Source: an uncultured Eubacteriales bacterium
Lineage (GTDB): Bacteria > Acidobacteriota > Aminicenantia > Aminicenantales > UBA8522
DNA length: 64,000 bases
Assembly (NCBI GenBank): GCA_964445305.1
Contig: CAYUKK010000005.1
Location: 6,614-70,613 of the forward strand
Direction: 5' to 3'
The notes under the pieces are model-generated. The model was not told the DNA's origin, did no database searches, and saw nothing but the letters and a program-made list of their open reading frames with translations. Shown one piece after another: positions 9,008-24,128 of the stretch (within the stretch, counting starts at the first letter, position 1; every line of letters starts with the position of its first letter). The translations under genes were made by a program, and so were the position numbers.

Positions 9008-9448
9008 TCAAATCTGGAATTCGTCCTTGTTCGAATCGGGCGGCTCTCCGCCCTCTTCTTTGTCGATGAATTTTTGCTCGAGGGCAATGATTTTGACCAG
9101 GTTAGCGGGGAGGTTCTGGCCCTTTGCTTCCCCGTAAGGATGGAATTGAACTCCAACTTGATACTTATAGGTTTTTCCTTCTGCCGGGGAAGCCCACTTG
9201 ACAGCTCCTTTCATGGTAAAAGGAATCCGCTCCCCGGGAATGGATATCTTGAGCTGGACTTCGGTATTCGGCTTGAGCGAGTTCTGAGCTAAGAAGCGCA
9301 CTCCACCGCGGCTGATATCGAGGAGAGGGCAGAATTCCTCGATGAAGCCAGGTTTGGTGAAGAACAGGCTCTTTTTCTGGTAGCTCACCGTTGCCCCGGG
9401 TATCTTGAACCGGACGCAGGCTCGTCTTTCGATTTTGCTTTCATCCAT
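9008..9448 (-). CDS. PilZ domain protein (c-di-GMP binding)
   Basis: RxxxR (RRACVRF) and DISRGGVRF (DxSxxG) PilZ motifs. The ORF-track start at 9628 is rejected: an internal ATG (MDESKIERR) has a strong SD (GAGGAGGGGGAGC) immediately upstream. Confidence 0.6.
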   Translation of the reverse strand: MDESKIERRACVRFKIPGATVSYQKKSLFFTKPGFIEEFCPLLDISRGGVRFLAQNSLKPNTEVQLKISIPGERIPFTMKGAVKWASPAEGKTYKYQVGVQFHPYGEAKGQNLPANLVKIIALEQKFIDKEEGGEPPDSNKDEFQI

Positions 9449-9852
9449 GCTCCCCCTCCTCGGGAAAAAGCTTCTCCCCAGCCAAGCATGCTCGAAAGAG
9501 AAGAGAAGGTCTCCGCCGACAACACGTCCTTTCGGCGATTGCCCTTCCCATGCTAAAAATCCAAGCTCAATGCATTGCTTATTTATATACACCAGGTGAG
9601 AGAGGATGTCAAAAATTTTCTTGTTCAAGCATCCGCTCTTGACATTAGGGGTGACGTCACGAAAGCAGCCCCTTATCTCTCCATCTCATCTTATCATCGA
9701 GGATGCGGGAACCCTTTCCTTCTCGGTCAGCTCCTGGACGGTAAAGTCAAGATAATCTCTATTATTCCCATTAAATCTATAGGAATAATATAATTAACCC
9801 AGAACCCATGAATCTCTATCTTGCTAAAGCTTGACGGACGACCGGCAATCGA

Positions 9853-11520
9853 TCAGCGCAGCGTGCCCTCGTAGTGGGCCGTAAGCTGGCGTTTGCGAAC
9901 CTCTTCGGGCGTGTAGGAAGGAAGGAGCACGGGGGCGATCCTGTCTGTCCTTATTCTGGCCTTCTTGAGCTCCTGTTCATAAGCTGCGACATGGTCGAGG
10001 GTCAGTTGGCCCAGAGTTACGGATTTCGCGTACTCGGCCGCAAAACGCCCGGCTCGCCGACCAAAGACGTTGTAATCAAGGACCGAGTTGCCCATCAGCC
10101 TGTTCCGGCCGTGGACACCGCCCGAGGCCTCGCCAGCGACAAAAAGGCCGGGGATATTCGTTTCGCACCGGTCGTTGATTTCGATGCCGCCGTTCTGGTA
10201 GTGAAGCGAAGGATAGACGAGCATCGGCTCCTTGGTAATGTCGATGTTGTAGCGGATAAACTGCCGGACCATAGCCGGGAAATTCTTGGCCAGGTAACCC
10301 GAGCCTCGGATGATTTCGATCAGGGGAGAGTCGAGCCAGACTCCCCATCGGCCGCTCGGTGTCTGGATGCCGTTCTTTCTTTCCAGGCATTCCCGGATAA
10401 AGGCCGCACTCTCAACATCGCGGGGCTCCCGAGGGAAAACAAAGAGCTCGCCAAACTTGTTAACCGGCTGGCCTCCGGCGCCACGGATTTTTTCCGTAAT
10501 GAGGAAGCCGGCAATTTGCTCCGGGAAAACCGCTCCCGTGGGATGGTACTGAACGGAATCCATGTAGAGCAGCTTGGCCCCTGCTCGGTAGGCGATGACC
10601 AGGCCATCGCCGGTGGCTCCGTAATGGTTGGTCGTGTCGAAGCCGCGAATATGGAGACGACCATAGCCGCCGGTGGCAATGATGGTCGCTTTCGCCTTGA
10701 CCGTAAAGTATTCCTCTGTTTCCATGTTGTAAAGTATGCCGCCGGCGCAGCGGCCGCGGGTGTCGAGAAGGAGCTCGACCGTGGGCATGAACTCGAGAAT
10801 GGTGATTTTGTCCGGATGGTTGCGGACCTCGTCCATCAGGGTGCGCATGATCATGGCCCCGGTATAATCGCGGCAGGAGTGCATCCTCTTGCGGGACGTA
10901 TCGCCTCCGTGGAGAACCTGCAAGGAGCCATCGGGGTTTTTATCCCAGACGACGCCGAGATCCTCGAGCCATTTCACGACTTCGGGTCCATCCTCAGTCA
11001 GAGCCCGAACGAGTTCAGGCTTGTTGTCAAAGTGGCCGCCGCCTATGGCGTCGAGGAAATGGCGGGTCGGCGAGTCCTGGGGTTTGACCGCGGCTTGCAT
11101 CCCGCCCTGGGACATCATCGAGTTCGCATCTCCGAGCCGTAGCTTGGTCGAGATGATGCTCCGGGCTCCGTTCTGCATGGCCAGGATGGCCGCTGCGCAA
11201 CCGGCGCCTCCGCCGCCAATGATGAGGATATCGGTCTCGAAATCAGGACGGGAGAGGTCGAAAAGCTCTGGCTTGATACGGCTGTGGGATTCGAGCATGT
11301 CGGCCACTTCGGTCGTGAGGAATTCACCCTTGTTGGGTCCGATCCGGACGACGCGCCTGGCCTCCGGCCTGTAATCGGGGTGAAACCTGTTGAGAACCTC
11401 CTCTCTTTCCTCGGCTGTCATGGGCGGGAAAACTGGCTTTCCCGATTTCTCGAGCTCCAGCCGATGCGGTCTCGTCTTTTCAACGAGGTTCAGGGATTCT
11501 CTCATATATTCGGGATACAT
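9853..11520 (-). CDS. fumarate reductase / succinate dehydrogenase-family flavoprotein (FAD_binding_2), probably non-covalent FAD, with a ~95-aa N-terminal extension
   Basis: 555 aa. Dinucleotide motif DILIIGGGGAGCAAAILA. The FAD region TKLRLGDANSMMSQGGMQAA lacks the covalent-FAD His seen in Sdh/Frd RSHTVAAQGG. Last gene of the hdr-like operon. Confidence 0.7.
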   Translation of the reverse strand: MYPEYMRESLNLVEKTRPHRLELEKSGKPVFPPMTAEEREEVLNRFHPDYRPEARRVVRIGPNKGEFLTTEVADMLESHSRIKPELFDLSRPDFETDILIIGGGGAGCAAAILAMQNGARSIISTKLRLGDANSMMSQGGMQAAVKPQDSPTRHFLDAIGGGHFDNKPELVRALTEDGPEVVKWLEDLGVVWDKNPDGSLQVLHGGDTSRKRMHSCRDYTGAMIMRTLMDEVRNHPDKITILEFMPTVELLLDTRGRCAGGILYNMETEEYFTVKAKATIIATGGYGRLHIRGFDTTNHYGATGDGLVIAYRAGAKLLYMDSVQYHPTGAVFPEQIAGFLITEKIRGAGGQPVNKFGELFVFPREPRDVESAAFIRECLERKNGIQTPSGRWGVWLDSPLIEIIRGSGYLAKNFPAMVRQFIRYNIDITKEPMLVYPSLHYQNGGIEINDRCETNIPGLFVAGEASGGVHGRNRLMGNSVLDYNVFGRRAGRFAAEYAKSVTLGQLTLDHVAAYEQELKKARIRTDRIAPVLLPSYTPEEVRKRQLTAHYEGTLR

Positions 11521-11532
11521 CGCACACTCCTT

Positions 11533-12285
11533 TTATTCGATGTCTCGAGCGTAGTATCTCTTCTTGAGCTCGTCTTTTTTCAAGGCCATCAGCTCCTTGT
11601 ATTCCCTGTCGAATTTCTTCTGGCGGATTTCCTTAATTCTCTGCTCGAGCTCAGGGCTTTTCTTGGCCAGATACCGGCCATAGAGCCTCTTGGCCAGCAG
11701 GCCGACGTTGTAATGGACAATCTCCGCTGGGCAGCGGATAGCACACAGCCCGCAGCAGAGGCAGTCGAAGGAAAGGTCCATGACCTTTTCGATGTCGCCT
11801 CGAATGGCGGCCTGGATGTAATCCATCACCTCCAACCCCTGGGGGCAGGCCTTAGTGCAGGTGTTGCAGGCGACGCAGCGAAAGATCTCCGGGTAGAGCT
11901 TCTGGAAAGCCGTGACGTTCGGCTCCAGCTTCTCGATGTCGTAGACAGGCTTCTGGGCCGGGATGACGGGAAGCTGGGAAAGCCACATGCCTTCCTGGAC
12001 GAGGGTGGTGCAGGCGAGGCCGGTATAGATTTTGTAATCCCCGGGGAGGCGATAGACGGTCGCGCAAGCCCCGCAAAAGCCTTCCCGGCAGCCAGCGCCC
12101 CGCTTGATCTGATAGCCGGCGTATTCGATGGCCCCCATGATGGTGGCCTCAGCCGGAACCTTATGGGCCTTGCCCATGATGTAGACGGTGACCATTTTCT
12201 TGGGGGGTTCAGCTGGCTCGGCCTTCTTTTTCATCGGCCGTACCGGCTTGGCATCTCTTCTCGGTGTCGCTTTCTTTTTAGCCAT
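11533..12285 (-). CDS. SdhB/FrdB-type iron-sulfur subunit (2Fe-2S plus two Cys-cluster motifs) with a Lys-rich N-terminal tail
   Basis: 250 aa. GCREGFCGACAT...LAC (2Fe-2S), then CVACNTCTKACP and CLCCGLCAIRCP. Strong SD (GGGAAGGAGA) before ATG 12285. Basic tail MAKKKATPRRDAKPVRPMKKKAEPAEPPKK. Confidence 0.7.
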   Translation of the reverse strand: MAKKKATPRRDAKPVRPMKKKAEPAEPPKKMVTVYIMGKAHKVPAEATIMGAIEYAGYQIKRGAGCREGFCGACATVYRLPGDYKIYTGLACTTLVQEGMWLSQLPVIPAQKPVYDIEKLEPNVTAFQKLYPEIFRCVACNTCTKACPQGLEVMDYIQAAIRGDIEKVMDLSFDCLCCGLCAIRCPAEIVHYNVGLLAKRLYGRYLAKKSPELEQRIKEIRQKKFDREYKELMALKKDELKKRYYARDIE

Positions 12286-12321
12286 CGTTTGATCTCCTTC
12301 CCGTTACTAAAGTCTTCGGTG

Positions 12322-13146
12322 TCAGTATTCTTGCGGCAACTTCTTGAGCTCCGCCCAGGAATAGACGGGACCGTCCTTGCAGACATAGTGCTGGCCGATG
12401 TTGCAACGGCCGCACTTGCCGATACCGCATTTCATTTTGTTTTCCACGGTCGTGTAAATTTGGTTATCGGCGAACTTGAGGTCCTGAAGCGCTTTGATGA
12501 CGAACTTGATCATAATGGGAGGGCCGCAGGTGATGGCGATGGTGTTGGAAGGATCGGGCTTCTTGTCCAAGACGTTCTGGGGAACGAACCCGACGAACTC
12601 TGTCCATTCTGGCTCGGCCACGTCGATAGACAAATGGACAGTCATCTGCTTCTTCAAGTCCGCCAGCTCCTCCTTAAAAACAATATCCTTCGACGTCCTG
12701 GCGCCGTAGATAAGGGTGAGCTCGCCGTATTCTTCCTTCTTGGCCAGGGCAGTCTGGAGCACAGACCAAATGGGAGCCAGGCCGATACCGCCGCCAATAA
12801 AGACCAGGTTTTTCCCCGTCCATGCTTCAACGGGAAAGCCGTTGCCATAGGGGCCGCGAATGCCGACCAAGTCGCCGACTTCCATCTCGTGGAGGGCCGT
12901 AGTTACCCTCCCCATCTTCAAGATGCTGAACTGGAGGTAGTCCTTAACAAGGGGGGAAGAGGAGATGGAGATCATGCTCTCACCCTTGCCAAAGACGGAA
13001 AGCATGGCGCACTGGCCACAGCGGTGGCTGAAGCCGTCGCCGTTGACGAAGACAGTCCGGAATGTCTTGATCGCCCTCGCCCCTCCCACTTCTTCCTTGA
13101 TATGGATGATCTTGGCCAGCTTGGGGATGTAGACGTTAGGCTCCAT
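12322..13146 (-). CDS. FAD/NAD(P)H-binding oxidoreductase with C-terminal 2Fe-2S (sulfhydrogenase gamma HydG / AsrB / PyrK-like; FlxA-like)
   Basis: 274 aa. GIRGPYGNGFP and LVFIGGGIGLAPIWS (NAD(P)-binding). C-terminal CGIGKCGRCNIG. Confidence 0.7.
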   Translation of the reverse strand: MEPNVYIPKLAKIIHIKEEVGGARAIKTFRTVFVNGDGFSHRCGQCAMLSVFGKGESMISISSSPLVKDYLQFSILKMGRVTTALHEMEVGDLVGIRGPYGNGFPVEAWTGKNLVFIGGGIGLAPIWSVLQTALAKKEEYGELTLIYGARTSKDIVFKEELADLKKQMTVHLSIDVAEPEWTEFVGFVPQNVLDKKPDPSNTIAITCGPPIMIKFVIKALQDLKFADNQIYTTVENKMKCGIGKCGRCNIGQHYVCKDGPVYSWAELKKLPQEY

Positions 13147-14191
13147 GGTTGCTTACCTTGTCCAGGACTTTGATGATGTCGATCCCAACCGGGCAGAGGC
13201 TGATGCAACGGCCGCAGCCCGTGCACATAACCTGGTCAAAATTCTCGACAAAATAGCGAAATTTATGGAGAACCCTCTGGCGAAGACGCGACGCCTTGTC
13301 CGGTCGGGGGTTGTGGCCGGAAGAATGCATGGTGAAATCGGGGAATTGGCAGTTGTCCCATGTCCGAACCCTCTTGCCGCGCAAGGGGGATATGGAGTCG
13401 ACTTCGTCGTTGATGTCAAAGCAATGGCAGGAAGGACAGAGATAGGTGCAGATGCCGCACTGGATGCAGCTCATCGATTCCTCATCCCAGAGAGACGAAT
13501 CGAACAGGCCCTGGAGAGCTGCGGCCCTCTCCTTTTTCGTCCCCTTGACCCCGCGGACGAGCTTTTTCCTCGCTTCGGCGTGCCTGGCCTGGACTTTCTT
13601 CTTGTCGTCCGGTTGGGGCTCTTTGAAGAGTTCTCTCGCCGCCTGGACGAGCTTTTCTCCGTTGGTCGAAAGGGTTTTTACATAATAGCTATCCCCTAAG
13701 TCGGTGAGCAAGATGTCAAGCCCTTCTTCGCCGTGGGGTGAACCCTCGACGGAAAGGCAAAAGCAATTCTCCCAGGGCGGCGTGTGGCAGGCCAAACCGA
13801 TGAGCGAAGCTTGGCTCCGACGCTTCCAGTAGTAAGGGTCGGTAAAGTCGCCGCCAAAAACTCTATCCAGGAGCCAGATAGCCCGGGCATCGCAGGGCCG
13901 GACGCCGAAAATAACGAATGGCTTGCCGTTGGGCAAGACTTCTCTGACCTCAAGGGTCTCGCGATTCCCCTCGATTGTTTTCGAGAATTCGAGGAAGACT
14001 TCGCGCTGAGGAAAGATAAGCGCTTTGGCCGGAAGTGTGGTTACGGCAAGCTCGAGGCTGGCGGGGGCATGGTCGATGATTTCGTAATTCCAGCGTTCGT
14101 TTTCATCTTTTCTCGGCGCATAAACCGTCCAAGCATTGAGCTTTTCCATCCACAGAGGCAAGGACTTTTTTTCAAGTATCTTGTCCATCAT
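13136..14191 (-). CDS. iron-sulfur oxidoreductase, sulfhydrogenase beta (HydB) / AsrA-like (FlxB-like)
   Basis: Start placed at MMDKILEKK (RBS GGAG...AGGT). CIQCGICTYLCPSC and CTGCGRCISLCP motifs. Overlaps the neighbouring hydG-like gene. Confidence 0.62.
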   Translation of the reverse strand: MMDKILEKKSLPLWMEKLNAWTVYAPRKDENERWNYEIIDHAPASLELAVTTLPAKALIFPQREVFLEFSKTIEGNRETLEVREVLPNGKPFVIFGVRPCDARAIWLLDRVFGGDFTDPYYWKRRSQASLIGLACHTPPWENCFCLSVEGSPHGEEGLDILLTDLGDSYYVKTLSTNGEKLVQAARELFKEPQPDDKKKVQARHAEARKKLVRGVKGTKKERAAALQGLFDSSLWDEESMSCIQCGICTYLCPSCHCFDINDEVDSISPLRGKRVRTWDNCQFPDFTMHSSGHNPRPDKASRLRQRVLHKFRYFVENFDQVMCTGCGRCISLCPVGIDIIKVLDKVSNHGA

Positions 14192-14192
14192 C

Positions 14193-15221
14193 TTACCTGA
14201 TGAAATCTCCAGGGTCATCGTCTTTGAAGGAGGATATGAGCGGCGGCTGGGCGGGGTCGAAGCCAACCTCGTAGCCGAAGAGCTCCTTGGCCTCCTTTTC
14301 CAGCTTCTTGTTGAGAAAGCGAAGGGGAATATCCAGCGGACAGGCCCTTTCGCATTCACCGCAGTCGATGCATCGGCCAGCCAGATGAATGGCCCGAACG
14401 AGGTGGTAGACGAAATTCTCGGATGACTCGGCTGACCTCTGGATCCACTTCACCTTGTGGGCTTTTTCCTCAGCCGTCGTGTCGGCTGTGACAGCCAGGT
14501 TGATGCTGTCGACGACGCATTCATCGCAGTAACACATCGGACAAACCGACCGACAGGCATAGCAACGGATGCACTTGTCGAGTTGCTCTTTCCAGAAACG
14601 CCACCTTTCTTCCTGGCCGAGCGCTTCTATTTTCTCGACGGACCCGAAGGGCTTGTCCACCGCCTTCCTGGTTTTTTCGCCCGCCAGGATGTCGTAGAGG
14701 ACTGGAAAGTTGGCCTGGCATTCCAGGCAACGCTCGGCCAGGAGCTCCTCGACCGGGAATTCGACCTTTCCGTCCGCCGTCGTGATGAGGAACCGGTCGG
14801 CGGCCAGCTCGATTTTCTTGGGTTTTTTCCCTCCCAGCTTTCGGGCAAGCTTGTGGTCATCGATGACGCCGGCTTTCTCGCAAGAAACGCCGAGGACGTA
14901 GATATCCTGACGGTCGATGAATTTTTCTTGGAGGAGAACGACGATGGCCCGGCTGTCGCAGCCCTTGACTACTACCCCCACCGGCCTTTTGTCGGGTTGC
15001 TTCTGCCTGGCTTTTCTTCTCTTCTCGTCAACGAGGAAGCGCGCCAGGTTGTGAACGCACGTCGGGTCCCAGACGAGCTTCTCGACATCCTCTGGAGTCT
15101 TGATGAACACGGGAATGGCCTGCCAGCCGTTGCCGCCCGTCCCATAGCCGATGAGGTATTTGATTTTCCCTTCACGCAGGAGCTTCCTCGCCTCCTCCTT
15201 GAGGTCCTCGAAATTAGCCAT
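14193..15221 (-). CDS. FrhB/FdhB-family-like iron-sulfur protein (FlxC-like) with two C-terminal 4Fe-4S ferredoxin motifs
   Basis: Start at MANFEDLKEEARK; its ATG shares one base with the mvhD stop (TGATG). CIRCYACRSVCP and CIDCGECERACP. Confidence 0.5.
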   Translation of the reverse strand: MANFEDLKEEARKLLREGKIKYLIGYGTGGNGWQAIPVFIKTPEDVEKLVWDPTCVHNLARFLVDEKRRKARQKQPDKRPVGVVVKGCDSRAIVVLLQEKFIDRQDIYVLGVSCEKAGVIDDHKLARKLGGKKPKKIELAADRFLITTADGKVEFPVEELLAERCLECQANFPVLYDILAGEKTRKAVDKPFGSVEKIEALGQEERWRFWKEQLDKCIRCYACRSVCPMCYCDECVVDSINLAVTADTTAEEKAHKVKWIQRSAESSENFVYHLVRAIHLAGRCIDCGECERACPLDIPLRFLNKKLEKEAKELFGYEVGFDPAQPPLISSFKDDDPGDFIR

Positions 15222-15643
15222 CAGGGGTTTCTCCTCAATTTTGCCTGGGGACCCAGCGGTTTGAGCTCTTTGACGAAATCCTTGATCACCTGGGTATATT
15301 TGGTGCCCTCGGCAGCCGAGACCCAGGACATCTGGAACCTCTCTGGCTCCAGCCCGATGAACTCCAGGAGTTTCTTGACAAAATAGATGCGCCGCCGGGC
15401 GTAGTAGTTTCCTTTGATGTAATGGCAATCGCCAGGATGGCAGCCCGAGACGAGCACACCGTCAGCGCCCTTATTGAAGGCGGTAAAGATGTAGAGAGGG
15501 GAGACGCTCCCGGAGCACATGACCTGGATGGGGATGACGTTGGGCGGATATTCCATCCGTGATACACCGGCCATGTCGCTCCCGGCCGAGGAACACCACT
15601 TGCACAGAAAAGCAACAATTTTCGGTTCGAATTCCTCCGCCAT
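15221..15643 (-). CDS. mvhD: MvhD / FlxD-like protein (methyl-viologen-reducing hydrogenase delta-subunit family; 2Fe-2S electron-transfer partner of HdrA)
   Basis: Start at MAEEFEPKIVAFLCKWC (ATGA overlap with the hdrA stop). Conserved CKWCSSAG ... VMCSG ... SGCHPGDCHY cysteines. Confidence 0.75.
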   Translation of the reverse strand: MAEEFEPKIVAFLCKWCSSAGSDMAGVSRMEYPPNVIPIQVMCSGSVSPLYIFTAFNKGADGVLVSGCHPGDCHYIKGNYYARRRIYFVKKLLEFIGLEPERFQMSWVSAAEGTKYTQVIKDFVKELKPLGPQAKLRRNP

Positions 15644-15645
15644 CC

Positions 15646-17592
15646 TCAGCCTCCCAGACACGCGCTGATCATATCGTGAACCTGGCTCAAAGTCAGGTTC
15701 TTCACCTGGATGGCCGCCCGCAAGCAGGTGGCCGAGCAGGTTCCGCATCCCTCGCAGAGGACTTCGTTGACCTCTGCTTTATCATCCTTCAAGGCGATCG
15801 CATCATAGGGACAGACTTGGACGCACATCCCGCAGCCTGTGCAGAGGGTGGGGATGACTTTGGCCACGGTTGGGGAGTGGTAGAGTCTCTCCTGGGAGAG
15901 AACAGCCACCGCCTTGGCGGCAGCACCGCTGGCCTGGGCCACGGCCTCAGGGATGTCCTTGGGAGCTTGCGCGGCTCCCGCCAGGAAAACGCCCGAGGTG
16001 ACGCTTTCGACTGGCCGCAGCTTGGGATGCGCTTCCGCCAAGAAGCCGTCCTTGTCCAGGGCCAGTTTGAGCTTCTTGGCCAGTTCTTGGGCTCCTTTGG
16101 CCGGACGCATCGCCTGGGCGAGAACAACCATGTCGGCGGCAATTTCGATGTGTTTGCCCGTCAGCGTATCGACTCCCCAGACTTTGAGCTTGCCCTTATC
16201 TTCGAAAACCTTCGACACTTTGCCCCGCAGGTAGACGACGCCATCCTCTTCGATGGCTCTCTGGACAAATTCCTCGTAGCCTTTGCCGCCAGAGCGGATG
16301 TCAATGTAAAAGACGTACGCTTGTCCGTCATGGACATGATGCTTGTAGAGCATGGCGTGCTTGGCTGTATACATGCAGCAGATTTTGGAGCAGTAAGCGC
16401 AGTGGTTTTCAGGGTCACGCGAGCCCGAGCACTGGATGAAGACGACTTCTTTGGGTTCCTTGTGGTCAGAGGGACGGAGAATCTGGCCTCTCGTGGGGCC
16501 TGACGCAGAGCAAAGTCGCTCGAACTGAAGCCCGTCGAGAACATCAGGGTACTTCCCGTATCCATATTCGGCCATGTTCTCTTTATCATAAAGGTCATAG
16601 CCAGTGGCCACGATAATCGCCCCCACTTCTTCTTCGATGATTTGTGGCTTCATATCATAGTCAATGGCCTTGGCCTCACAGACGTCGGCGCACTTGCCGC
16701 AGGCGATGGGCAAAAGGCCGGGGCACGCGTTGATGTCGAGGGTGTAGGAAGCCGGAATGGCTTGAGGAAAGGGGATATAAATGGCTCTTCTTCCCGTCAG
16801 CCCGAGTTCAAACTCGCTGGGGACAACGATGGGGCAGACCTTCGTGCACTCATCGCAGAGGTTGCACTTATCGGGGTCGACGTAAGTCGGCTTCTTCAGG
16901 ATCTTGACTTTGAAATTGCCCACATACCCGGAGACATCCTGGACTTCGCAGTAGGTCATCAGCCTGATTTTTGGATGCTTGGAAGCCTCGACCATTTTGG
17001 GAGTAAGGATGCACTGGGAGCAATCCAGGGTGGGGAAAGTCTCGGAAAGCTGGATCATATGGCCGCCGATGGAGGGGCTTTTCTCCACGAGAATGACGTC
17101 AAACCCGCTATTGGCCAAATCAAGAGAAGCCTGGATGCCGGCAATCCCCCCGCCGATGACAAGGGCCTTGCGCGTCACGGGGACGCTGACGGCCTCGAGG
17201 GATTCATTCCGATGGACTTTTTCTACAGCGCTCTTGGTGATTTTGATGGCTTTCTGGGTGGCTTTGTCTTTTTCCTTGTGGACCCAGCTACATTGCTCCC
17301 GGATGTTGGCAATTTCGCAACGATAGGCATTCAGTCCAGCCAACCCCGAAGCCTTGCGAAAGGTTGTCTCGTGGAGAGTCGGCGAGCAGCAGGCGACGAC
17401 GACGTTGCTTAATTTTTTCTCTTTGATAGCCTGGACAATGAGGTTTTGCCCCGGGTCCGAGCACATGTAGACATAATCCTCGGCATGAACAACACCGGGA
17501 TGTTTGATGAGCTCCTGAGCGACTTTCTTGACATCCACTGTACCGGCGATATTGATGCCGCAGTGGCAGACAAAAACTCCTGTGCGTTTCAT
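15646..17592 (-). CDS. hdrA: heterodisulfide reductase subunit A (FAD, multiple Fe-S clusters)
   Basis: 648 aa. Near-colinear with methanogen HdrA: GVFVCHCGINIAGTVD, VIGGGIAGIQASLDLANSGF, CNLCDECTKVCP, FIQCSGSRD, and C-terminal CTGCGMCVQVCP / CEGCGTCSATC. Confidence 0.88.
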   Translation of the reverse strand: MKRTGVFVCHCGINIAGTVDVKKVAQELIKHPGVVHAEDYVYMCSDPGQNLIVQAIKEKKLSNVVVACCSPTLHETTFRKASGLAGLNAYRCEIANIREQCSWVHKEKDKATQKAIKITKSAVEKVHRNESLEAVSVPVTRKALVIGGGIAGIQASLDLANSGFDVILVEKSPSIGGHMIQLSETFPTLDCSQCILTPKMVEASKHPKIRLMTYCEVQDVSGYVGNFKVKILKKPTYVDPDKCNLCDECTKVCPIVVPSEFELGLTGRRAIYIPFPQAIPASYTLDINACPGLLPIACGKCADVCEAKAIDYDMKPQIIEEEVGAIIVATGYDLYDKENMAEYGYGKYPDVLDGLQFERLCSASGPTRGQILRPSDHKEPKEVVFIQCSGSRDPENHCAYCSKICCMYTAKHAMLYKHHVHDGQAYVFYIDIRSGGKGYEEFVQRAIEEDGVVYLRGKVSKVFEDKGKLKVWGVDTLTGKHIEIAADMVVLAQAMRPAKGAQELAKKLKLALDKDGFLAEAHPKLRPVESVTSGVFLAGAAQAPKDIPEAVAQASGAAAKAVAVLSQERLYHSPTVAKVIPTLCTGCGMCVQVCPYDAIALKDDKAEVNEVLCEGCGTCSATCLRAAIQVKNLTLSQVHDMISACLGG

Positions 17593-18212
17593 GGCTTACC
17601 CTTCTTGGCTTTAGCTGGAGCGAGCTTGGCCGTCGGGGTTTCTGCCTTTTCTTCAACCTGCGGTTGACCCGTCTGGCGCAGCTGTTCCAGGCCATAATCG
17701 TAACCTCTCTCGAAGGCTCGGATATTTAATTCTAAGAATCTCTTGGGGACAAGGCCAGGTAACGCCTTTTTCATCGCCTCGGGTGTGACGGCCTTCGTTA
17801 TCGCCGTGAAGAACCCGAGCATCACCAAATTGGCAAAAATCCGGTTGCCCATTTCTTCGGCGAAGCGGGTCGCGGGAATGCTGAAGACTTTGATCTTGGC
17901 CCGAGGAGGACGGATTTTGACGAGGTCCGTGTCGATGATGAGGATGCCGTCTTCCCTCAATTCGGGCTCGTATTTTTCATAGGCATCCTGGGACATAGCC
18001 ACCAAGATTTCTGGCCGAGTGATGTAGGGATAAAGAACGCGGTCATCAGAAATGACGAGCTGGGAGCTGCAGGCGCTTCCCCTTGCCTCGGGTCCGAAGC
18101 TCTGAGTCATCGTGCCGTATTTATTATCAAACAGGGAAACCGCTTTGCCGGTGATGAGGCCGCAGCGGATGATTCCCTGCCCGCCGTATCCAGAGAAACG
18201 AATTTCTTTCAT
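17589..18212 (-). CDS. 2-oxoacid:ferredoxin oxidoreductase gamma subunit
   Basis: 207 aa. MKEIRFSGYGGQGIIRCGLITGKA is the POR/KOR gamma hallmark. 4-nt overlap with the hdrA start. Confidence 0.8.
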   Translation of the reverse strand: MKEIRFSGYGGQGIIRCGLITGKAVSLFDNKYGTMTQSFGPEARGSACSSQLVISDDRVLYPYITRPEILVAMSQDAYEKYEPELREDGILIIDTDLVKIRPPRAKIKVFSIPATRFAEEMGNRIFANLVMLGFFTAITKAVTPEAMKKALPGLVPKRFLELNIRAFERGYDYGLEQLRQTGQPQVEEKAETPTAKLAPAKAKKGKP

Positions 18213-18215
18213 GGC

Positions 18216-19079
18216 TCACTCTCCATAGGGCTGATATTTATCGCCCAGGACTTTCTTCAAATGGGTATTCATGCATTCCAGGAAAGTCGGTTTTTCTCGG
18301 TCGATGAACTTACCGACAATAATCTTGCCCTGGTAGCTGATGTCCAGAGTGCGCGTATCCGCGCCGTGCTGGATGTCCGAATTCTCGTAGTAATACTTGA
18401 GGAGGTTGAGGCCGTCGCCGAGACGGTTACGGCGGGCGTAGAGGGTGACGCAGGGGGTGATGACCTCGATGAAGGAGAAACCCTTCTTGGCCAGGGCTTC
18501 CTGAATGGATTTAGTTACCCGCCGCAAGTGGAGTGCCGTCCAGCGAGCGACATAAGTAGCGCCACAAGCATCGGCTAAGTAAGGAAGATTGAAGGGATAT
18601 TCATAGTTCCCGTAGGGAGCGGTGGAAAGGTTAGCCTGGATGGGGGTGGTCGCGGCCACCTGGCCGCCGGTCATCGCGTAATTGAAATTATTGACGCAAA
18701 TGACCAGTATGTCCATGTTCCGCCGGGCGGCATGGATGAAGTGATTGCCGCCAATGCCAACAATGTCTCCATCACCGCTGAAGACAACGACCTTGAGCTC
18801 AGGGTTGCCCAGCTTCAAACCTGTGGCGAAGGGAATAGGCCGGCCATGGGTGGTGTGGAAAGAATCGAGTCGGACATAGCCGGCCACTCTCCCCGTGCAG
18901 CCGATGCCCGAAACGATAGCCACCTTATCCAGGTTAATGTTGCTCTTGCGCAGGGCGCTAGCAAAGGAGCTAACGACCGTTCCGATGCCGCATCCCGGAC
19001 ACCAGATGTGAGGAATCCGGTCCATGCGCAAGAATTCTTCCATCGGGTTTCTTTCTTCGAGCCGATCCTCTTCCCTCAT
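18216..19079 (-). CDS. 2-oxoacid:ferredoxin oxidoreductase beta subunit (TPP-binding)
   Basis: 287 aa. WCPGCGIG...GIGCTGRV...FSGDGD TPP motif. ATGA overlap with the alpha-subunit stop. Confidence 0.85.
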   Translation of the reverse strand: MREEDRLEERNPMEEFLRMDRIPHIWCPGCGIGTVVSSFASALRKSNINLDKVAIVSGIGCTGRVAGYVRLDSFHTTHGRPIPFATGLKLGNPELKVVVFSGDGDIVGIGGNHFIHAARRNMDILVICVNNFNYAMTGGQVAATTPIQANLSTAPYGNYEYPFNLPYLADACGATYVARWTALHLRRVTKSIQEALAKKGFSFIEVITPCVTLYARRNRLGDGLNLLKYYYENSDIQHGADTRTLDISYQGKIIVGKFIDREKPTFLECMNTHLKKVLGDKYQPYGE

Positions 19080-20242
19080 CGAGCTGCCTCCTTGATTGCT
19101 TTTAAAATATCATTAGGGTCATGGACCCAGCCGCCGCAGTGGGGAACACCGATGGCCGGCGCTTGGCCGAAAGCGCAGCGTTCAACCTCACGACGAATTT
19201 GGCCGAGGTTGATTTCCGGAACGACAAAAGCCTTGATTTTTTTTGCCAGTTCCCTTATCCGTTCCTCGGGGAAGGGCCAGACGGTGATCAACCGGAGTGT
19301 GCCAACTTTGATGCCCGCCTTTCTCGCTTCCTGGATCGCCTTAACAGCCACTCGCGAGGTGATCCCGTAGGAGACGACCACTACTTCAGCGCCATCTGTC
19401 TCTTCTTCCCTGTATTCAATGATTTTGTGGGCGTTTTTTCGGATTTTATCGTTGATGTGTCGGACGCACCAATCCTGGCATTCGGCGTTGATGATGGGGT
19501 AGCCTCTTTCATCGTGGGTTAAGCCGGTCGTGTGGAAACGGTAGCCATCGCCGGCTTTAACCATAAACGGCACGAGGTCTTTGTCCGGCTTGTAGGGTCG
19601 GTACTTATCCTTGGGGCCCTCATACCATTTTCTCTCTACGACCTCAATTTCGTCAGCGGGGGGAATGACAACTTTCTCGTGCATATGGCCGACGCACTCG
19701 TCGGTCATGAGGAATGTCGGCACTCGATACATTTCCGAGAGGTTGAAAGCCTTGATGGTCAGGTCGAAACACTCCTGCGGCGAATCAGGGGAGAGGGCGA
19801 TGATTTCGTAGTCGCCGTGAGAGCCCCATCTGACCTGCATCATGTCCGCTTGGCCTGTCAGAGTCGGCAGCCCCGTCGATGGGCCTCCTCGCTGGACGTT
19901 GGCGATGACGATGGGGACTTCCATCATGGCGGCGAGGCCGATGTTTTCCATCATTAAGGAAAAACCGGGTCCAGAAGTGACGGTCATGGATTTTACGCCA
20001 GCCCATGAGGCTCCGATGAGGGCGGCGACAGAGGCAATTTCGTCCTCCATCTGGATGAAAACTCCACCCACGTAGGGGATTCTTTCGGCGAATCTTTCCG
20101 CCGTTTCGGTCGAGGGGGTAATGGGATAGCCGGCGAAAAAGCGGCAACCGGCAGCTAAGGCTCCCTCGGCGATGGCAAAATCGCCGTCGAGGTAATGGGC
20201 GCCGGTGAGAACACCCTTAGGATCGGCTTTCACTTTTTTCAC
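19076..20242 (-). CDS. 2-oxoacid:ferredoxin oxidoreductase alpha subunit
   Basis: 388 aa. VLTG...AIAEGALAAGCRFFAGYPITPSTE and FLMTDECVGHMHEKV. Confidence 0.85.
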   Translation of the reverse strand: MKKVKADPKGVLTGAHYLDGDFAIAEGALAAGCRFFAGYPITPSTETAERFAERIPYVGGVFIQMEDEIASVAALIGASWAGVKSMTVTSGPGFSLMMENIGLAAMMEVPIVIANVQRGGPSTGLPTLTGQADMMQVRWGSHGDYEIIALSPDSPQECFDLTIKAFNLSEMYRVPTFLMTDECVGHMHEKVVIPPADEIEVVERKWYEGPKDKYRPYKPDKDLVPFMVKAGDGYRFHTTGLTHDERGYPIINAECQDWCVRHINDKIRKNAHKIIEYREEETDGAEVVVVSYGITSRVAVKAIQEARKAGIKVGTLRLITVWPFPEERIRELAKKIKAFVVPEINLGQIRREVERCAFGQAPAIGVPHCGGWVHDPNDILKAIKEAAR

Positions 20243-20492
20243 CTTCTTCCTCCTCTTTCATGAGAGTCACGTAGAGGGCAAATTCTGGGCAGATGGCCTC
20301 GCAAAGCTGGCAATAGCAGCAGTTTTCTTCGTGGACAATGCGGGGCGGGTGATAGCCTTTTCGGTTGAATTCCTCAGAAAGCTCAAGGACATCGCGGGGA
20401 CAATACTCAACGCAAAATCCGCATCCCTTGCAGCGTTCTCTATCGATGTGGATCTTGCCCTTTTTCGGTTTGAGGTCACCAAAATAAACCAT
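20217..20492 (-). CDS. 4Fe-4S dicluster ferredoxin, delta subunit of the four-subunit oxidoreductase
   Basis: Start at MVYFGDLKPKK (SD GAGAGGAAAC). CKGCGFCVEYCP and CCYCQLCEAICP. Confidence 0.7.
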   Translation of the reverse strand: MVYFGDLKPKKGKIHIDRERCKGCGFCVEYCPRDVLELSEEFNRKGYHPPRIVHEENCCYCQLCEAICPEFALYVTLMKEEEEGEKSESRS

Positions 20493-20500
20493 GTTTCCTC

Positions 20501-21382
20501 TCACATCAAGCTTTTTTCGACGAGCAAAGGCTTGGGGTCAATATAATGGAGGTCGAGACGCAAATCTTTCTCCGCGCAGCCGAGCGCCATAGCCAGGAGT
20601 TGAGTGAAATAGAGAACGGGCATCGTCTTGAATTCGGGATACAAGCGAGCTGTCTCTTTCTGCCGGTGGTCAAGGTTAAAAGCGCAAAGAGGGCAACTGA
20701 CAGCCACGACTTCGGCACCCTGCTCGCGAGCCGAGTTGAGGATCCTGTAAGTCCGCTCGGCCACCACCTCCGGCTTGTCGACTGTCTGGTAAGAAGCGCA
20801 GCATTCGGTCTTGTAAGGGAAGTCGACGGGCTGAGCGCCCAGAGCGGCCATCAGGTGTTCTAAAATCATCGGGTTCTCGGGATCATCGAGGCCAATTTCT
20901 TTGGGGCGGACGAGGAGGCAACCGTAGTAGCTGGCGACCTTCAGGCCCCTTAGGGGCCGCCGGACCTTCTGGGCGATCGTGTCCAGCTTGATGTCGTCGC
21001 GGAGAAGCTCGAGAAGATGGCGGATGCGGATATCCCCAGCATAGGCGATTTTCTCCTCATCCATGAACTTGTGGATTTTCGTCAAACTCTCCGGGTCGGC
21101 CTTGATTCTTTCATTGACTCTTTTGAGGGTGTTGTAGCACATCGCACAGAGGGTGAGGACGGAATCCGAGCCGCTTTCTTTAACCCGGATGAGGTTACGG
21201 ATAGAAGCAAGATGATGGATCAGGTCATCAGCAGCTAAGGAGTAAACCGTGCCGCAGCAGTTCCAGCGCTTGAGCTCTTCGACCTCAAGGCCGAGCTCTT
21301 TTAGGGAGCATAATGTCGAATCTTCAAAATTCTTAGCATTGCTCTTCAGAGTGCAGCCCGGATAATAACTTATTTTCATCAT
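20501..21382 (-). CDS. hdrB: HdrB-like CCG-domain protein (two cysteine-rich CCG domains; the second reads CCAS)
   Basis: 293 aa. YYPGCTLKS...RWNCCGTVYS...LCAMC and YYGCLLVRP...ECCASYQ...CPLCAF. Confidence 0.78.
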   Translation of the reverse strand: MMKISYYPGCTLKSNAKNFEDSTLCSLKELGLEVEELKRWNCCGTVYSLAADDLIHHLASIRNLIRVKESGSDSVLTLCAMCYNTLKRVNERIKADPESLTKIHKFMDEEKIAYAGDIRIRHLLELLRDDIKLDTIAQKVRRPLRGLKVASYYGCLLVRPKEIGLDDPENPMILEHLMAALGAQPVDFPYKTECCASYQTVDKPEVVAERTYRILNSAREQGAEVVAVSCPLCAFNLDHRQKETARLYPEFKTMPVLYFTQLLAMALGCAEKDLRLDLHYIDPKPLLVEKSLM

Positions 21383-21423
21383 AATTTCCTAAAAATATGA
21401 ATTGAACTGTTATGATGGCCATT

Positions 21424-21831
21424 TTACGAAGTGAACTTACGGAAATTGCTGATGAGGGCAATCGGTGGAACGCTCGCTTTTTCCTCATCGGAGAGCTCAC
21501 GCACCTCAACATGATCGCATCGCTTGCGGAGCAGAATCTGACGAACGGCTTCCATGACCTCAGCGATCTTGATGCCCTTTGGGCAACGCACATTGCATGT
21601 ATAGCAGGAAGCGCAGACCCAAACGGATCGAGATTGAAGGAGCTCATCTTTTAGGCCAAGCTGAGCGAACCGGATAATTTGGTTGGGCAAAATGTCCATC
21701 TGGGAAACAGCCGGACAGCCGGCCGAACACTTGCCGCACTGGTAGCAGGCCAGAAGTTTTTGGCCGCTCAATTCCTCCACTTTTTCAACAAAACTATCCC
21801 TAATCTTTTTCTTGGATAGGGTAACTCTCAT
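21424..21831 (-). CDS. hdrC: HdrC-like 2x[4Fe-4S] subunit
   Basis: CYQCGKCSAGCP and CASCYTCNVRCP. ATG at 21831 (MRVTLSKKK) is preferred over the GTG at 21849. Confidence 0.75.
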   Translation of the reverse strand: MRVTLSKKKIRDSFVEKVEELSGQKLLACYQCGKCSAGCPAVSQMDILPNQIIRFAQLGLKDELLQSRSVWVCASCYTCNVRCPKGIKIAEVMEAVRQILLRKRCDHVEVRELSDEEKASVPPIALISNFRKFTS

Positions 21832-21956
21832 TGTTATTTCTCTTTCCACCCCAAAAATTCAAGTTGGCTTGGTTTTGATGCATTTTCCTGGCCAAAAATG
21901 ACCCTTCAGTAAACCACAATTTGAATTTGCTGTCAAGAAAATCAGGAGGTGAAGTG

Positions 21957-24128
21957 CTAATGCCCCCCAAAAAACAGAAGAAGAAAGAGACACATGAGGT
22001 TGAGCAAGAAGATGCTTATCAAAACGAAAGGCAAGCCCGTCAGAGGGATGAGCAAGGTGCTCGTGAGCAAAGCCCCTCCAAAAGAACCGAGAAGGTCCAG
22101 CCCGTAGCCGAGACCGTAATCGGCTTTGGATTTAAGATAGAGCTGGTTCGAGACAATGAAGAGGTCGCCTCCCAGATAACCCAGGGCGAAGAGGATGAGA
22201 AAAGCCAGAACCTCGGGCGGTCTTGCCCGCATCATTATTAGGAAAACGAGAAGAAGGAAAAGAAATCCAGCCTGGATAAGAGCCAACTGGCGGAAGGAGA
22301 AACTCCGTTTTTTCGACCTGACCCAGCTTCCTATATAAAGCCCGAGCATAAAAATGGAGAGGAGGAGGGCAATAGCGCCATAAAGGTATCCATAAAGAGC
22401 TTGAAACCAGACGAGGAGGATGATTTCTGTGATGATCGTCGTAAAACCCATGACGGCCAAGGGGACAAGCGGCAATGGACTTTTCTTCTTCCGGATGAGC
22501 AGCCAAACGGAAACAAGGCAAAAAAAGGCCAGGGGGAGAGTAAGAAGCCAGAGGGGAGAGAGTTGGGAGAAATACTTGAGGCCCTTGACTTCGAGACCGC
22601 GGAAATGCGCGCTCCAGAGCATGATCTGGAAATAGAAACTGATGGGGGCCAAGTCCGTGTTGACCCGGCTCTGTCTCGATTTCATCGCTGTCTCCAGTCG
22701 GTCGCGGCGCAGAGGATGGAGCCGGGATAAAAGAGAAGAGCGAGTGAAATACAGGGTCTCGAGGCCAAGGGCTTCCACCCTTTGGGCGAGCACTTCAGGC
22801 TCCACCTGAATCGACTCCGAGGAGCCAAGGAAAACATTCCTGGCGCCAGGAATGACTTCGACATGGGGAAAGACTTCTTTCAGGGTGTGGTAAAGAGAAG
22901 CTAAGAATAGCTCCAGCTCGCCTCCGATGTAGTCTTCCGCCGAGGCGACAATGAAGGAGAGAACCCCAGCTGAAGTGAGCTTTCTCTTGGCCAGGCGGAA
23001 GAATTCAAGGGTATAAAATCGATTGAGTTGGGCCGTGCTGGGATCGGGCAAGGAAATGAGAATGCCATCGTAGGAATTGTCGGCCTTTTGGAGGAAAGCG
23101 CGTCCATCCTCAAAGAAAAGATGAACCCGGGCGTCGCTCAAGGCCCTTTTTTCTTCTTCAGGGAGGAAGAGCCTGGAGAGTTGGATTACTTCCGGGTCGA
23201 GTTCGACATAATCGACCCGGGCTATGGGGTATTTGAGGATCTCCATCAACGTTCCTCCAGCCCCGCCGCCAATGAGGAGGATTCTTTCAGCTTCCGGTTT
23301 CTGAAGGAGGGCGAAATGGACAGATTCTTCAGCCGAAGCCCGATCAGGATGGGAATAAACAGGCGCGCTATTGCTATAAAGAGAGGTCTGTTCCTCGGTC
23401 TTGATGACCTGAAGCTTTCCGTACCGGGTGTCCCGGCTGGCCAGAAGATGGTAGGGCCGCCAGTAAAGCCTTTGTGTGGGCATATCGAGAAAGATGAACA
23501 CGGTGAGAACAAGTGTCAGAAGAGCCGGGATAACCAGCCTTTTCTTTTTGTCGACGAGCGAAAAGAGAAGCCACGTCCCCGCTCCTCCAATTAAGGCGGC
23601 TGCCTGCCAGGCACTGAAATGGGGCAGGAAGAGAAAATAGACCGTTAGCCCGGCGATGGTGGCTCCCAGTGATTCGAGCCTGTAAACGTCGTTGATTCGT
23701 CCGGAAGCTTTCCCAACGTTGAGGACAAAGAGCATTCCGAGAGGGAAACTGACGAGAAGACAGAGGCCGAAAGAAAGCCCGAGGACGGGCAGGAGGCCTA
23801 TGAGTTCACCTGGGAGGACCCGCATGATGAAACGGAAAACCCGCACCCCGGCCAGAGAAAGGACGATAAAAAAGATGACCCCATAATAGATTTGGGAGAG
23901 GTTTTTTTGAAGGAAAGACCAGCGGGAAGCAAGAATGCTTCCCAAGCCCCCCCAGAGGAGCCAGGATGCCAAGACGACCCCGAAGGTCAGCTCATTGCCG
24001 TAGAAATGGGCACTGAACTCCCGAAGGAGGAGAATCTGGGAGGAGGTTGCCAAAAATCCCAGGAGAAAAGGGGGGAAGGAATCCTTTAAGCCCAGATTCC
24101 AGGGATGGGGTTTTGGCAGAAGCGGCAT
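21957..24128 (-). CDS. polytopic membrane protein with a central spermidine-synthase-like (SpeE / class I MTase-fold aminopropyltransferase) domain
   Basis: 723 aa with many predicted TM helices at both ends. Central ILLIGGGAGGTLMEILKYP...VDYVELDPEVI...LISLPDP matches the SpeE-fold dinucleotide motif. Confidence 0.6.
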   Translation of the reverse strand: MPLLPKPHPWNLGLKDSFPPFLLGFLATSSQILLLREFSAHFYGNELTFGVVLASWLLWGGLGSILASRWSFLQKNLSQIYYGVIFFIVLSLAGVRVFRFIMRVLPGELIGLLPVLGLSFGLCLLVSFPLGMLFVLNVGKASGRINDVYRLESLGATIAGLTVYFLFLPHFSAWQAAALIGGAGTWLLFSLVDKKKRLVIPALLTLVLTVFIFLDMPTQRLYWRPYHLLASRDTRYGKLQVIKTEEQTSLYSNSAPVYSHPDRASAEESVHFALLQKPEAERILLIGGGAGGTLMEILKYPIARVDYVELDPEVIQLSRLFLPEEEKRALSDARVHLFFEDGRAFLQKADNSYDGILISLPDPSTAQLNRFYTLEFFRLAKRKLTSAGVLSFIVASAEDYIGGELELFLASLYHTLKEVFPHVEVIPGARNVFLGSSESIQVEPEVLAQRVEALGLETLYFTRSSLLSRLHPLRRDRLETAMKSRQSRVNTDLAPISFYFQIMLWSAHFRGLEVKGLKYFSQLSPLWLLTLPLAFFCLVSVWLLIRKKKSPLPLVPLAVMGFTTIITEIILLVWFQALYGYLYGAIALLLSIFMLGLYIGSWVRSKKRSFSFRQLALIQAGFLFLLLVFLIMMRARPPEVLAFLILFALGYLGGDLFIVSNQLYLKSKADYGLGYGLDLLGSFGGALLTSTLLIPLTGLPFVLISIFLLNLMCLFLLLFFGGH

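Follow-up and report, generated by a model that had tools for sequence, protein, structure and literature searches.

Why should an operon for a soluble Hdr-Flx complex end in a pair of genes that resemble fumarate reductase and succinate dehydrogenase (Frd/Sdh)? This question is raised by a 64,000-nucleotide stretch of DNA from an uncultured bacterium (contig CAYUKK010000005.1, positions 6,614 to 70,613; hereafter, the window). On its minus strand, frdA (9853..11520; a 555-residue flavoprotein, Pfam FAD_binding_2) follows frdB (11533..12285; a 250-residue iron-sulfur subunit, Pfam 4Fe-4S dicluster matches), and the two genes form the 3' end of a tightly spaced operon of 13 genes that runs from 21849 to 9853. 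Their sequences predict a cytoplasmic fumarate reductase module that has no membrane anchor. We consider it probable, by analogy with known systems, that frdBA provides the fumarate-reducing, high-potential arm of an Hdr-Flx complex that depends on reduced nicotinamide adenine dinucleotide (NADH) and reduces ferredoxin (Fd) by electron bifurcation. What was computed here comprises the list of parts, the conservation of catalytic and cluster residues, the solubility and the co-inheritance of the genes; the mechanism we infer from published proposals and by analogy with characterized Flx-Hdr and HdrABC systems.

Operon content, relatives and proposed electron flow

The open reading frames (ORFs) of the operon and their Pfam and NCBIfam content gave the order hdrC-hdrB-korDABC-hdrA-flxDCBA-frdB-frdA, all on the minus strand. 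All seven FlxABCD-HdrABC genes (for HdrA, HdrB, HdrC, FlxA, FlxB, FlxC and FlxD) were thus present in one operon. The first gene is hdrC-like (21424..21849; a protein with two [4Fe-4S] clusters, Pfam Fer4_8/17/9) and the second is hdrB-like with two CCG domains (20501..21382; Pfam CCG in two stretches, E = 1.4e-20); this corrects a first reading of the sequence, as the two genes stand at the far end of the operon (20501-21849). Between hdrB and hdrA lie korD-korA-korB-korC (17589..20504), which encode a four-subunit 2-oxoacid:ferredoxin oxidoreductase (Pfam POR_N, PFOR_II, TPP_enzyme_C, POR and Fer4; NCBIfam 2-oxoacid/2-oxoglutarate oxidoreductase subunits). The hdrA gene (15646..17592) encodes an Fe-S flavoprotein (NCBIfam HdrA2, 834.6 bits, residues 3-645), which is the bifurcating subunit of characterized Hdr complexes.

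The Flx genes follow. The start of flxD/mvhD (15221..15643; Pfam FlpD, E = 5.6e-53) was set at Met36 of its ORF, and the orthologue in the related loci L004 and L005 has 140 residues. The flxC-like gene encodes an Fe-S protein (14193..15221; 4Fe-4S dicluster matches); its start codon is our choice, and its place between mvhD and flxB is kept in related loci. The flxB-like gene (13136..14218) encodes a HydB/AsrA-like Fe-S subunit (Pfam Fer4_22; NCBIfam sulfhydrogenase beta-like), for which an identical public contig carries a 360-residue gene call. The product of the flxA-like gene (12322..13146), a subunit binding flavin adenine dinucleotide (FAD) and NAD(P) with a C-terminal [2Fe-2S] domain (Pfam NAD_binding_1 and DHODB_Fe-S_bind; NCBIfam HydG/AsrB-like), is the predicted entry point of NADH. 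Identical copies of the region were found on public metagenome contigs with the same 250- and 555-residue gene calls. Judged by the source names of close homologues, the contig is bacterial and belongs to Candidatus Aminicenantes. Promoter and terminator scans over the operon gave counts no higher than those in shuffled sequence.

No SdhC/D-like anchor gene was found in the operon, and none of its proteins possessed a transmembrane-like segment (maximum 19-residue Kyte-Doolittle mean at most 1.76, compared with 2.89 in a neighboring membrane protein used as control). The control is a polytopic membrane protein of 723 residues with a spermidine-synthase-like domain, encoded directly upstream of hdrC (21957-24128, minus strand). 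A preliminary description of the frdBA pair, made from the letters of the window, had already noted the missing anchor and had suggested a soluble, complex-associated Frd-like module; the first point was supported by the genes and hydropathy, and the second by the operon context and by family-wide synteny with HdrCB, HdrA and Flx.

Synteny was examined in relatives. When one genome per GTDB species was scanned, 80 loci with 52-87% identity were obtained, all of which covered the FrdA query from residues 1-6 to at least residue 536 (mostly to ~546-555). Bacterial carriers were Aminicenantes, Ignavibacteria, Cloacimonadales, Thermodesulfobacteriota, Chloroflexota and Spirochaetota, and archaeal carriers were Theionarchaea, Thermoplasmata, Bathyarchaeota and Heimdallarchaeota; gut-derived carriers included many Clostridia as well as Treponema, Phascolarctobacterium and Bacteroidaceae genomes. 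Among the species-representative loci, 56 extended at least 8 kb upstream; in these, FrdB was encoded near frdA in 56/56, an HdrB-like CCG protein in 46/56, HdrA in 44/56, MvhD in 37/56, FlxA and FlxC in 34/56 each, FlxB in 31/56 and Kor subunits in 12-14/56. Orthologues of the window HdrB occurred in 56/80 loci and those of HdrC, adjoining hdrB, in 53/80. The genes hdrC-hdrB-frdB-frdA were contiguous in 14 loci, where hdrB stopped just short of frdB, ~700-1,280 bp upstream of frdA, and in some archaeal and bacterial loci (for example, L010, L033 and L034) this block occurred without HdrA or Flx. Clostridia loci had the order hdrB-hdrC-hdrA-flxDCBA-frdBA. From these counts and the 14 contiguous loci, we read the evolutionary core as HdrC + HdrB + FrdB + FrdA, equivalent in domains to TfrAB and HdrC taken together, to which various electron-input modules are attached.

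Among the 104 genes flanking the clusters, analyzed with Pfam in a single batch, the most frequent families included malate/lactate dehydrogenase (8 genes), class I fumarase (6), class II fumarase (6), malic enzyme (5), Asp-Al_Ex permease (5) and succinyl-CoA synthetase (2). These families represent the reductive branch from oxaloacetate to succinate, which supports fumarate as the substrate. The same set contained the large (6) and small (4) subunits of NiFe hydrogenase; in some lineages, H2 via an Mvh-type module, not NADH via Flx, may be the electron donor for the Hdr-Frd core.

In the mechanism that we propose, NADH would be oxidized at FlxA, and FlxB, FlxC and FlxD (MvhD) would relay electrons to the flavin of HdrA, where they would be bifurcated. 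One electron would travel downhill through HdrC and the CCG clusters of HdrB to FrdB and the FAD of FrdA, which would reduce fumarate to succinate (~+30 mV); this downhill transfer would pay for the reduction of ferredoxin by the other electron. The sum would be 2 NADH + fumarate + 2 Fd(ox) -> 2 NAD+ + succinate + 2 Fd(red). Reduced ferredoxin could then feed the co-encoded 2-oxoglutarate:ferredoxin oxidoreductase (Kor), which would carboxylate succinyl-CoA. If this is true, fumarate would be one of the few high-potential acceptors by which flavin-based electron bifurcation is driven, and anaerobes could make reduced ferredoxin from NADH while forming succinate, with neither a membrane nor a quinone. 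[quoted passage not shown]

Could the module run in the opposite direction? As a succinate dehydrogenase, it would let electrons from succinate and from ferredoxin reduced by Kor with 2-oxoglutarate confurcate to NAD+. In favor of this, the reactions of Frd/Sdh flavoproteins can in principle go either way, Kor can also work oxidatively, and a fermentative life is presumed for Aminicenantes. According to our own arithmetic with textbook standard potentials, however, bifurcation to fumarate is feasible and the reverse, with succinate oxidation, is unfavorable: the mean of ~+30 mV and ~-450 mV is ~-210 mV, well above the -320 mV of NAD+/NADH, and confurcation to NAD+ would therefore be uphill. 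Further, the neighbors in relatives (malate dehydrogenase, fumarase, malic enzyme and an exporter-type permease) agree with a reductive route to succinate, and non-covalent FAD, which is predicted for FrdA as described below, is typical of fumarate reducers. We regard succinate oxidation as a most improbable function of the pair.

The flavoprotein FrdA

The fumarate-reducing reading depends on FrdA. Pfam FAD_binding_2 (PF00890) spans its residues 97-480 (E = 3.8e-77) and begins with DILIIGGGGAG, in agreement with the ~95 residues that had been counted before the GGGxAG motif in the preliminary description. The best PDB sequence matches of FrdA were SdhA/FrdA. An AlphaFold2 model computed from 46 diverse homologues reached a predicted template modeling score of 0.85; its top match in Foldseek was E. 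coli FrdA (1kf6_A, E = 4e-31, 32% identity), and the nearest solved structures were E. coli FrdA and mycobacterial SdhA. The motifs HPTG, TE..R, PRD, HY and NRL of FrdA align to the catalytic motifs of E. coli FrdA. The residues H326, T342, E343, R346, R367, H440 and R474 align to catalytic residues of the E. coli enzyme and are invariant in the family (here and below, in alignments of 38 and 46 sequences). FrdA is accordingly named here after its predicted role, the catalytic subunit of a fumarate reductase.

Residues 131-144 of FrdA read DANSMMSQGGMQAA. The DANSMMSQGG segment (11101..11130, minus strand) holds Asn133, which in the HMMER alignment falls on the position of the covalent-FAD histidine of E. 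coli FrdA, which we take to be His44 (8-alpha-N3-histidyl FAD). N133 is invariant in the family, as are K126, L127, R128, G130 and D131, and Sdh/Frd-like relatives with the C-terminal domain have His at this position. The FAD of FrdA is predicted to be bound non-covalently, and the description of an Frd/Sdh-like flavoprotein that lacks the covalent-FAD His holds. No Pfam match to Succ_DH_flav_C (PF02910) was found in FrdA, which has ~55 residues after residue 500, compared with 150-210 in His-containing relatives; in this C-terminal tail, the invariant residues are H510, P530, P534 and Y536.

The N-terminal region of FrdA (residues 1-95; 11236..11520, minus strand) had been taken for an unusual extension. 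In contrast, it was covered in 80/80 related loci. R17, H47-P48-D49, G61 and G65 are invariant, and a search of 1.84 billion cluster representatives showed that the region, with the conserved motif FHPDY...GxNxGE, is common to relatives down to ~37% identity. AlphaFold2 predicted it to be folded (mean predicted local distance difference test score, pLDDT, of 75-94 in blocks of 10 residues), with helices at 4-26, 36-46 and 70-76 and two short strands. No Pfam domain was found over residues 1-96. Further, we identified no structural counterpart of the region with Foldseek, in which the PDB alignments were ~430-570 columns long (~450 for the FrdA/SdhA matches). As the region is conserved and confidently folded, it is a family-defining hallmark and not an add-on or an oddity of a single gene. 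Among the nearest representative clusters, the N-terminal region, the short C-terminus and Asn133 occurred together in 14 clusters; the His-containing Sdh/Frd-like clusters lacked the N-terminal region and had a C-terminal domain of 150-210 residues, and the NadB-like clusters had Ser in place of Thr342. By these marks, namely the N-terminal region, Asn133 and the loss of the C-terminal SdhA domain, FrdA belongs to a separate, widespread family. The N-terminal region and the short C-terminal tail probably replace the missing SdhA C-terminal domain, form the interface with FrdB, or both.

The likeness to TfrA or NadB-type enzymes that had been suggested earlier did not hold, as FrdA missed the cut-offs of all curated models by wide margins. 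TfrA was its best NCBIfam match (NF004900, 336.6 bits against a cut-off of 718, residues 94-521 only); lower scores came from the SdhA/FrdA subfamily model (TIGR01812, 279.6 bits against 567.3) and the NadB model (TIGR00551, 263.1 bits against 452.75). Does FrdA then act on another substrate, either as an L-aspartate oxidase or as a reductase of another unsaturated acid? The covalent His is missing and is replaced by Asn, as in many NadB-like proteins, and NadB models score as high as ~263 bits. This score, however, is under every NadB cut-off. Thr342 is as in Frd/Sdh and not the NadB-like Ser: the signature of FrdA, HTERRHR, is that of the His-containing Sdh/Frd group, whereas the NadB-like group has HSERRHR. 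Also invariant are the two Arg and the two His by which the two carboxylates are bound. Further, the Fe-S partner gene was present in 56/56 loci and is fused to frdA in some relatives, there was no nadA/nadC context, and genes for fumarase and malate dehydrogenase were common nearby in relatives. A substrate other than fumarate is thus very unlikely. AprAB-like, flavocytochrome c and urocanate reductase identities were likewise dismissed for FrdA, with lower scores and with cytochrome or other partner contexts absent.

The iron-sulfur protein FrdB and its basic tail

The Cys motifs of FrdB indicate one [2Fe-2S] and two [4Fe-4S] clusters, and no CCG domain was found by Pfam. C66/71/74/92 (2Fe-2S-type spacing), C137/140/143/147 (a CxxCxxCxxxCP motif) and C175/178/181/185 (a second such motif) were all invariant in 79/79 family members, and Y244, R247 and E250 at the C-terminus (Y-x2-R-x2-E) were each kept in at least 72/79. 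The third cluster motif has four Cys and thus predicts [4Fe-4S], not [3Fe-4S]. Matches of FrdB to known models were weak: residues 41-216 matched the N-terminal, non-CCG half of TfrB (positions 21-177 of 488), and the similarity to SdhB spanned the first two motifs.

Natural FrdB-FrdA fusions were found in five database clusters, with FrdB preceding the FrdA N-terminal region, which indicates by the Rosetta-stone argument that the two proteins interact. The fusion proteins (P0122 and P0388-P0391) have 709-737 residues. In the one fusion context that we looked at (locus L084, 10001-12130), the gene lies among cell-envelope genes and is followed by an ORF of 108 residues, and no Hdr, Flx or Kor genes were found within 10 kb.

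How would FrdB receive its electrons? In one alternative to the continuous chain proposed above, there are two enzymes connected by a thiol carrier. Flx-HdrABC would reduce a disulfide, on a DsrC-like protein or a small heterodisulfide, and HdrB, FrdB and FrdA would form a split, TfrAB-like thiol:fumarate reductase, and HdrA and FrdA would not be linked by an unbroken Fe-S wire. TfrA is indeed the best NCBIfam match of FrdA, FrdB matches the N-terminal half of TfrB, and hdrC-hdrB-frdB-frdA occurs without HdrA/Flx in L010, L033 and L034. This arrangement is also one option in the published models (PMC6315080, PMC11636981). On the other hand, the single CCG protein of the operon would need to serve both reactions, FrdB has no CCG domain, the operon contains no DsrC-like gene, and the TfrA cut-off is widely missed (336.6 vs 718). 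To our knowledge, coenzyme M (CoM) and coenzyme B (CoB) are not expected from bacteria. We consider the thiol carrier unlikely, but a proposal to be reckoned with. A direct HdrB-FrdB wire is favored on sequence grounds, because there is only one CCG protein and FrdB lacks a CCG domain.

Several points weigh against assigning frdBA to a bifurcating complex. No biochemical demonstration of activity was found for any member of the family in the searchable literature. Fumarate is suggested as the substrate by two kinds of evidence only, conserved residues and gene neighborhood, and no fumarase or malate dehydrogenase gene was found in the 64-kb window; a search of the rest of the window for succinyl-CoA synthetase was negative too. 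The role of HdrB/HdrC may be that of a direct wire or may lie in thiol/disulfide chemistry. HdrA is absent within 10 kb in approximately a fifth of related loci, and the fused form occurs on its own; thus, the FrdBA module can probably draw electrons from other donors. Further, in a predicted structure of the fusion P0122, the FrdB part had a pLDDT of only 28-50, because only five fusion sequences cover FrdB.

FrdB of the window opens with a Lys/Pro/Ala-rich basic tail (residues 1-30; 12196..12285, minus strand), MAKKKATPRRDAKPVRPMKKKAEPAEPPKK, in which composition is 12 K+R, 6 P and 3 D+E per 30 residues. A Shine-Dalgarno sequence, GGGAAGGAGA (12293..12302, minus strand), lies 7 nucleotides upstream of the frdB ATG. 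Is this tail made, or does translation start at Met31, so that the tail is an artefact of ORF calling? The conserved core of FrdB starts at window residue ~29-31 (MVTVYIMGKAHKVP), where an in-frame ATG is present and where most members of the family begin; FrdB of gut Clostridia has 224 residues. However, no ribosome-binding site stands before Met31 (CCCCCCAAGAAAATG), while Met1 has a strong GGAGA 7 nucleotides ahead of it. The Aminicenantes relatives L004, L005 and L006 keep open Lys/Ala/Pro-rich stretches of 27-43 codons, mutually unalignable, behind the same ribosome-binding site, with GAAGGAGA preceding the frdB ATG just past the flxA stop codon. Further, frdB of L005 offers no start codon in frame where the core begins, and its next Met is inside the core; a start there would truncate the core, and the tail must therefore be translated. 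Public gene calls also give 250 residues. An ORF-calling artefact is accordingly quite improbable, and we conclude that the tail is real and translated, as had been claimed earlier for the 30-residue Lys/Pro-rich start behind a strong Shine-Dalgarno sequence.

The suggestion that the tail is a docking element fared worse. Short K-rich N-termini of FrdB occur in scattered lineages (L012, L015, L023 and L053), and the tail is otherwise restricted to Aminicenantes, with no conservation of its sequence. The tailless majority of FrdB keeps the same Hdr/Flx partners, and a general or essential docking role is therefore unlikely. Judged by its sequence, the tail is a disordered, lineage-specific, fast-evolving low-complexity appendage that is dispensable for the family, and it stands outside the core mechanism proposed here.

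KorC likewise ends in a Lys/Ala/Pro-rich tail (...EEKAETPTAKLAPAKAKKGKP; 17592-17672, minus strand), which is more basic in L005 and L044 and absent from L004 and from KorC outside Aminicenantes. No other comparable K/A/P-rich tails besides those of FrdB and KorC were found in a greedy ORF set of the window. One could imagine that the products of all 13 genes form a single soluble supercomplex, in which the low-potential electron of HdrA would pass straight into KorDABC without free ferredoxin and the high-potential electron would go to fumarate, so that two consecutive reductive TCA steps would be driven by NADH alone; the Lys-rich tails at the N-terminus of Aminicenantes FrdB and the C-terminus of KorC would then be electrostatic tethers for the modules or for an acidic ferredoxin. 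Taken as a whole, this picture is very improbable.

Known systems and neighboring genes

The idea of a bifurcating Hdr-Flx-Frd complex has already been published. In tubeworm symbionts (Escarpia, Ca. Endoriftia) and Thioflavicoccus mobilis, an Hdr-Flx-Kor-Tfr/Frd cluster has been reported in a reductive TCA locus; the symbiont cluster is expressed and was proposed to encode a bifurcating complex that feeds 2-oxoglutarate:ferredoxin oxidoreductase and fumarate reductase (Rubin-Blum et al. 2019, PMC6315080). Co-expression data are available for the symbiont cluster (Mitchell et al. 2024, PMC11636981), and a survey of 2026 takes up the idea again (PMC13147460). According to the gene list in the supplement (PMC6315080), the symbiont cluster has the same 11-gene core order, hdrC-hdrB-korD-korA-korB-korC-hdrA-flxD-flxC-flxB-flxA, with frdB-frdA in the same cluster and kor between hdrCB and hdrA-flxDCBA, as in the window. 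The proposed function, NADH-driven bifurcation to fumarate and to ferredoxin/2-oxoglutarate:ferredoxin oxidoreductase, is also the same. In contrast, frdBA lies after flxA in the window and before hdrC in the symbiont list. The window host is an Aminicenantes-type anaerobe, whereas the symbiont hosts are sulfur-oxidizing gammaproteobacteria, and no ATP-citrate lyase or other reductive TCA genes were found near the window operon, unlike in the symbiont cluster.

In Pseudoclostridium thermosuccinogenes, a "succinate operon" with fumarase, Flx-Hdr and Frd genes was upregulated ~4-fold as a unit and was read likewise, with reference to a preprint by Koendjbiharie and van Kranenburg (2019) (PMC7282089). 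Judged by the genes described there, it resembles the window in combining HdrABC-FlxABCD with a two-gene fumarate reductase and in the proposed coupling of succinate formation to ferredoxin reduction; it differs in that it includes fumarase, contains no kor genes and has an FrdB without a basic tail. Thus, the window adds a lineage, in a new phylum, and breadth to a published idea, and no new principle. It also adds a description of FrdA/FrdB family signatures and neighborhood evidence for fumarate as the substrate. The literature passages considered here make no mention of the HPD N-terminal region, Asn133, the lost C-terminal domain, the all-[4Fe-4S]-type FrdB motifs or the breadth of distribution.

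TfrAB of Methanothermobacter, like the window pair, is soluble, lacks a membrane anchor and consists of a flavoprotein and an Fe-S protein. TfrB has the domains of window FrdB plus HdrB, but its CCG domains are fused to the Fe-S part, whereas in the window they are encoded in a separate gene (20501-21382); with an HdrB-like CCG protein in the system, FrdB and HdrB therefore resemble a split TfrB. The TfrA model aligns from residue 94 of window FrdA, has no counterpart of the N-terminal region and reaches ~120 positions past the match at the C-terminus. The donors of TfrAB are the thiols CoM-SH and CoB-SH, which are not expected in a bacterium. Complex II (E. coli FrdAB/SdhAB) has the FAD and capping-domain fold and the catalytic residues in common with FrdA, and its Fe-S subunit, like FrdB, has a [2Fe-2S] motif followed by ferredoxin-type motifs. 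Unlike complex II, FrdA lacks the covalent-FAD His and the C-terminal helical domain, possesses the N-terminal region and has no SdhC/D, and the third cluster motif of FrdB, with its four Cys, differs from the [3Fe-4S] of complex II.

FlxABCD-HdrABC, an NADH dehydrogenase/heterodisulfide reductase, is said to have been described by Ramos et al. in 2015, and FrdABCDE of Hydrogenobacter thermophilus was reportedly described by Miura et al. in 2008; we know of no report of ferredoxin reduction by the latter. According to a published summary, FrdABCDE is a characterized cytoplasmic NADH:fumarate reductase of the reductive TCA cycle, in which SdhA/B-like proteins are joined by extra soluble subunits (PMC13147460). 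It has five subunits and not HdrABC + FlxABCD.

Among the relatives, the locus L044 (CAYPGQ010000004.1, 125-11632) encodes HdrB through FlxA with 69-90% identity to the window and FrdB/FrdA with only 52-55%. Its frdBA was apparently swapped in place for a distant orthologue, which suggests that the module is exchangeable. Metagenome-assembled genomes labeled Clostridiales/Eubacteriales (P0008; L005, L012 and L044) carry an operon 82-91% identical to Aminicenantes proteins, and the labels of these bins look unreliable.

Two ORFs on the plus strand, 9874-11142 (422 residues) and 11284-13173 (629 residues), overlap frdA and frdB/flxA. They were dismissed as genes, as their translations are low-complexity and rich in Gly, Arg and Asp and the real genes lie on the opposite strand; we read them as shadow ORFs, cast by a coding region that is GC-rich. 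A gene for a response-regulator diguanylate cyclase with a GGDEF domain stands beside one for a PAS/GAF hybrid histidine kinase of 1,097 residues (27573-31804, minus strand), forming a cyclic diguanylate (c-di-GMP) signaling pair ~6 kb upstream of the operon. Directly 3' of frdA lies a PilZ-domain gene (9008-9628, minus strand), which is found in the same place on the identical public contigs L001-L003 and in the relatives L005, L006 and L044; a c-di-GMP link to frdA is possible.

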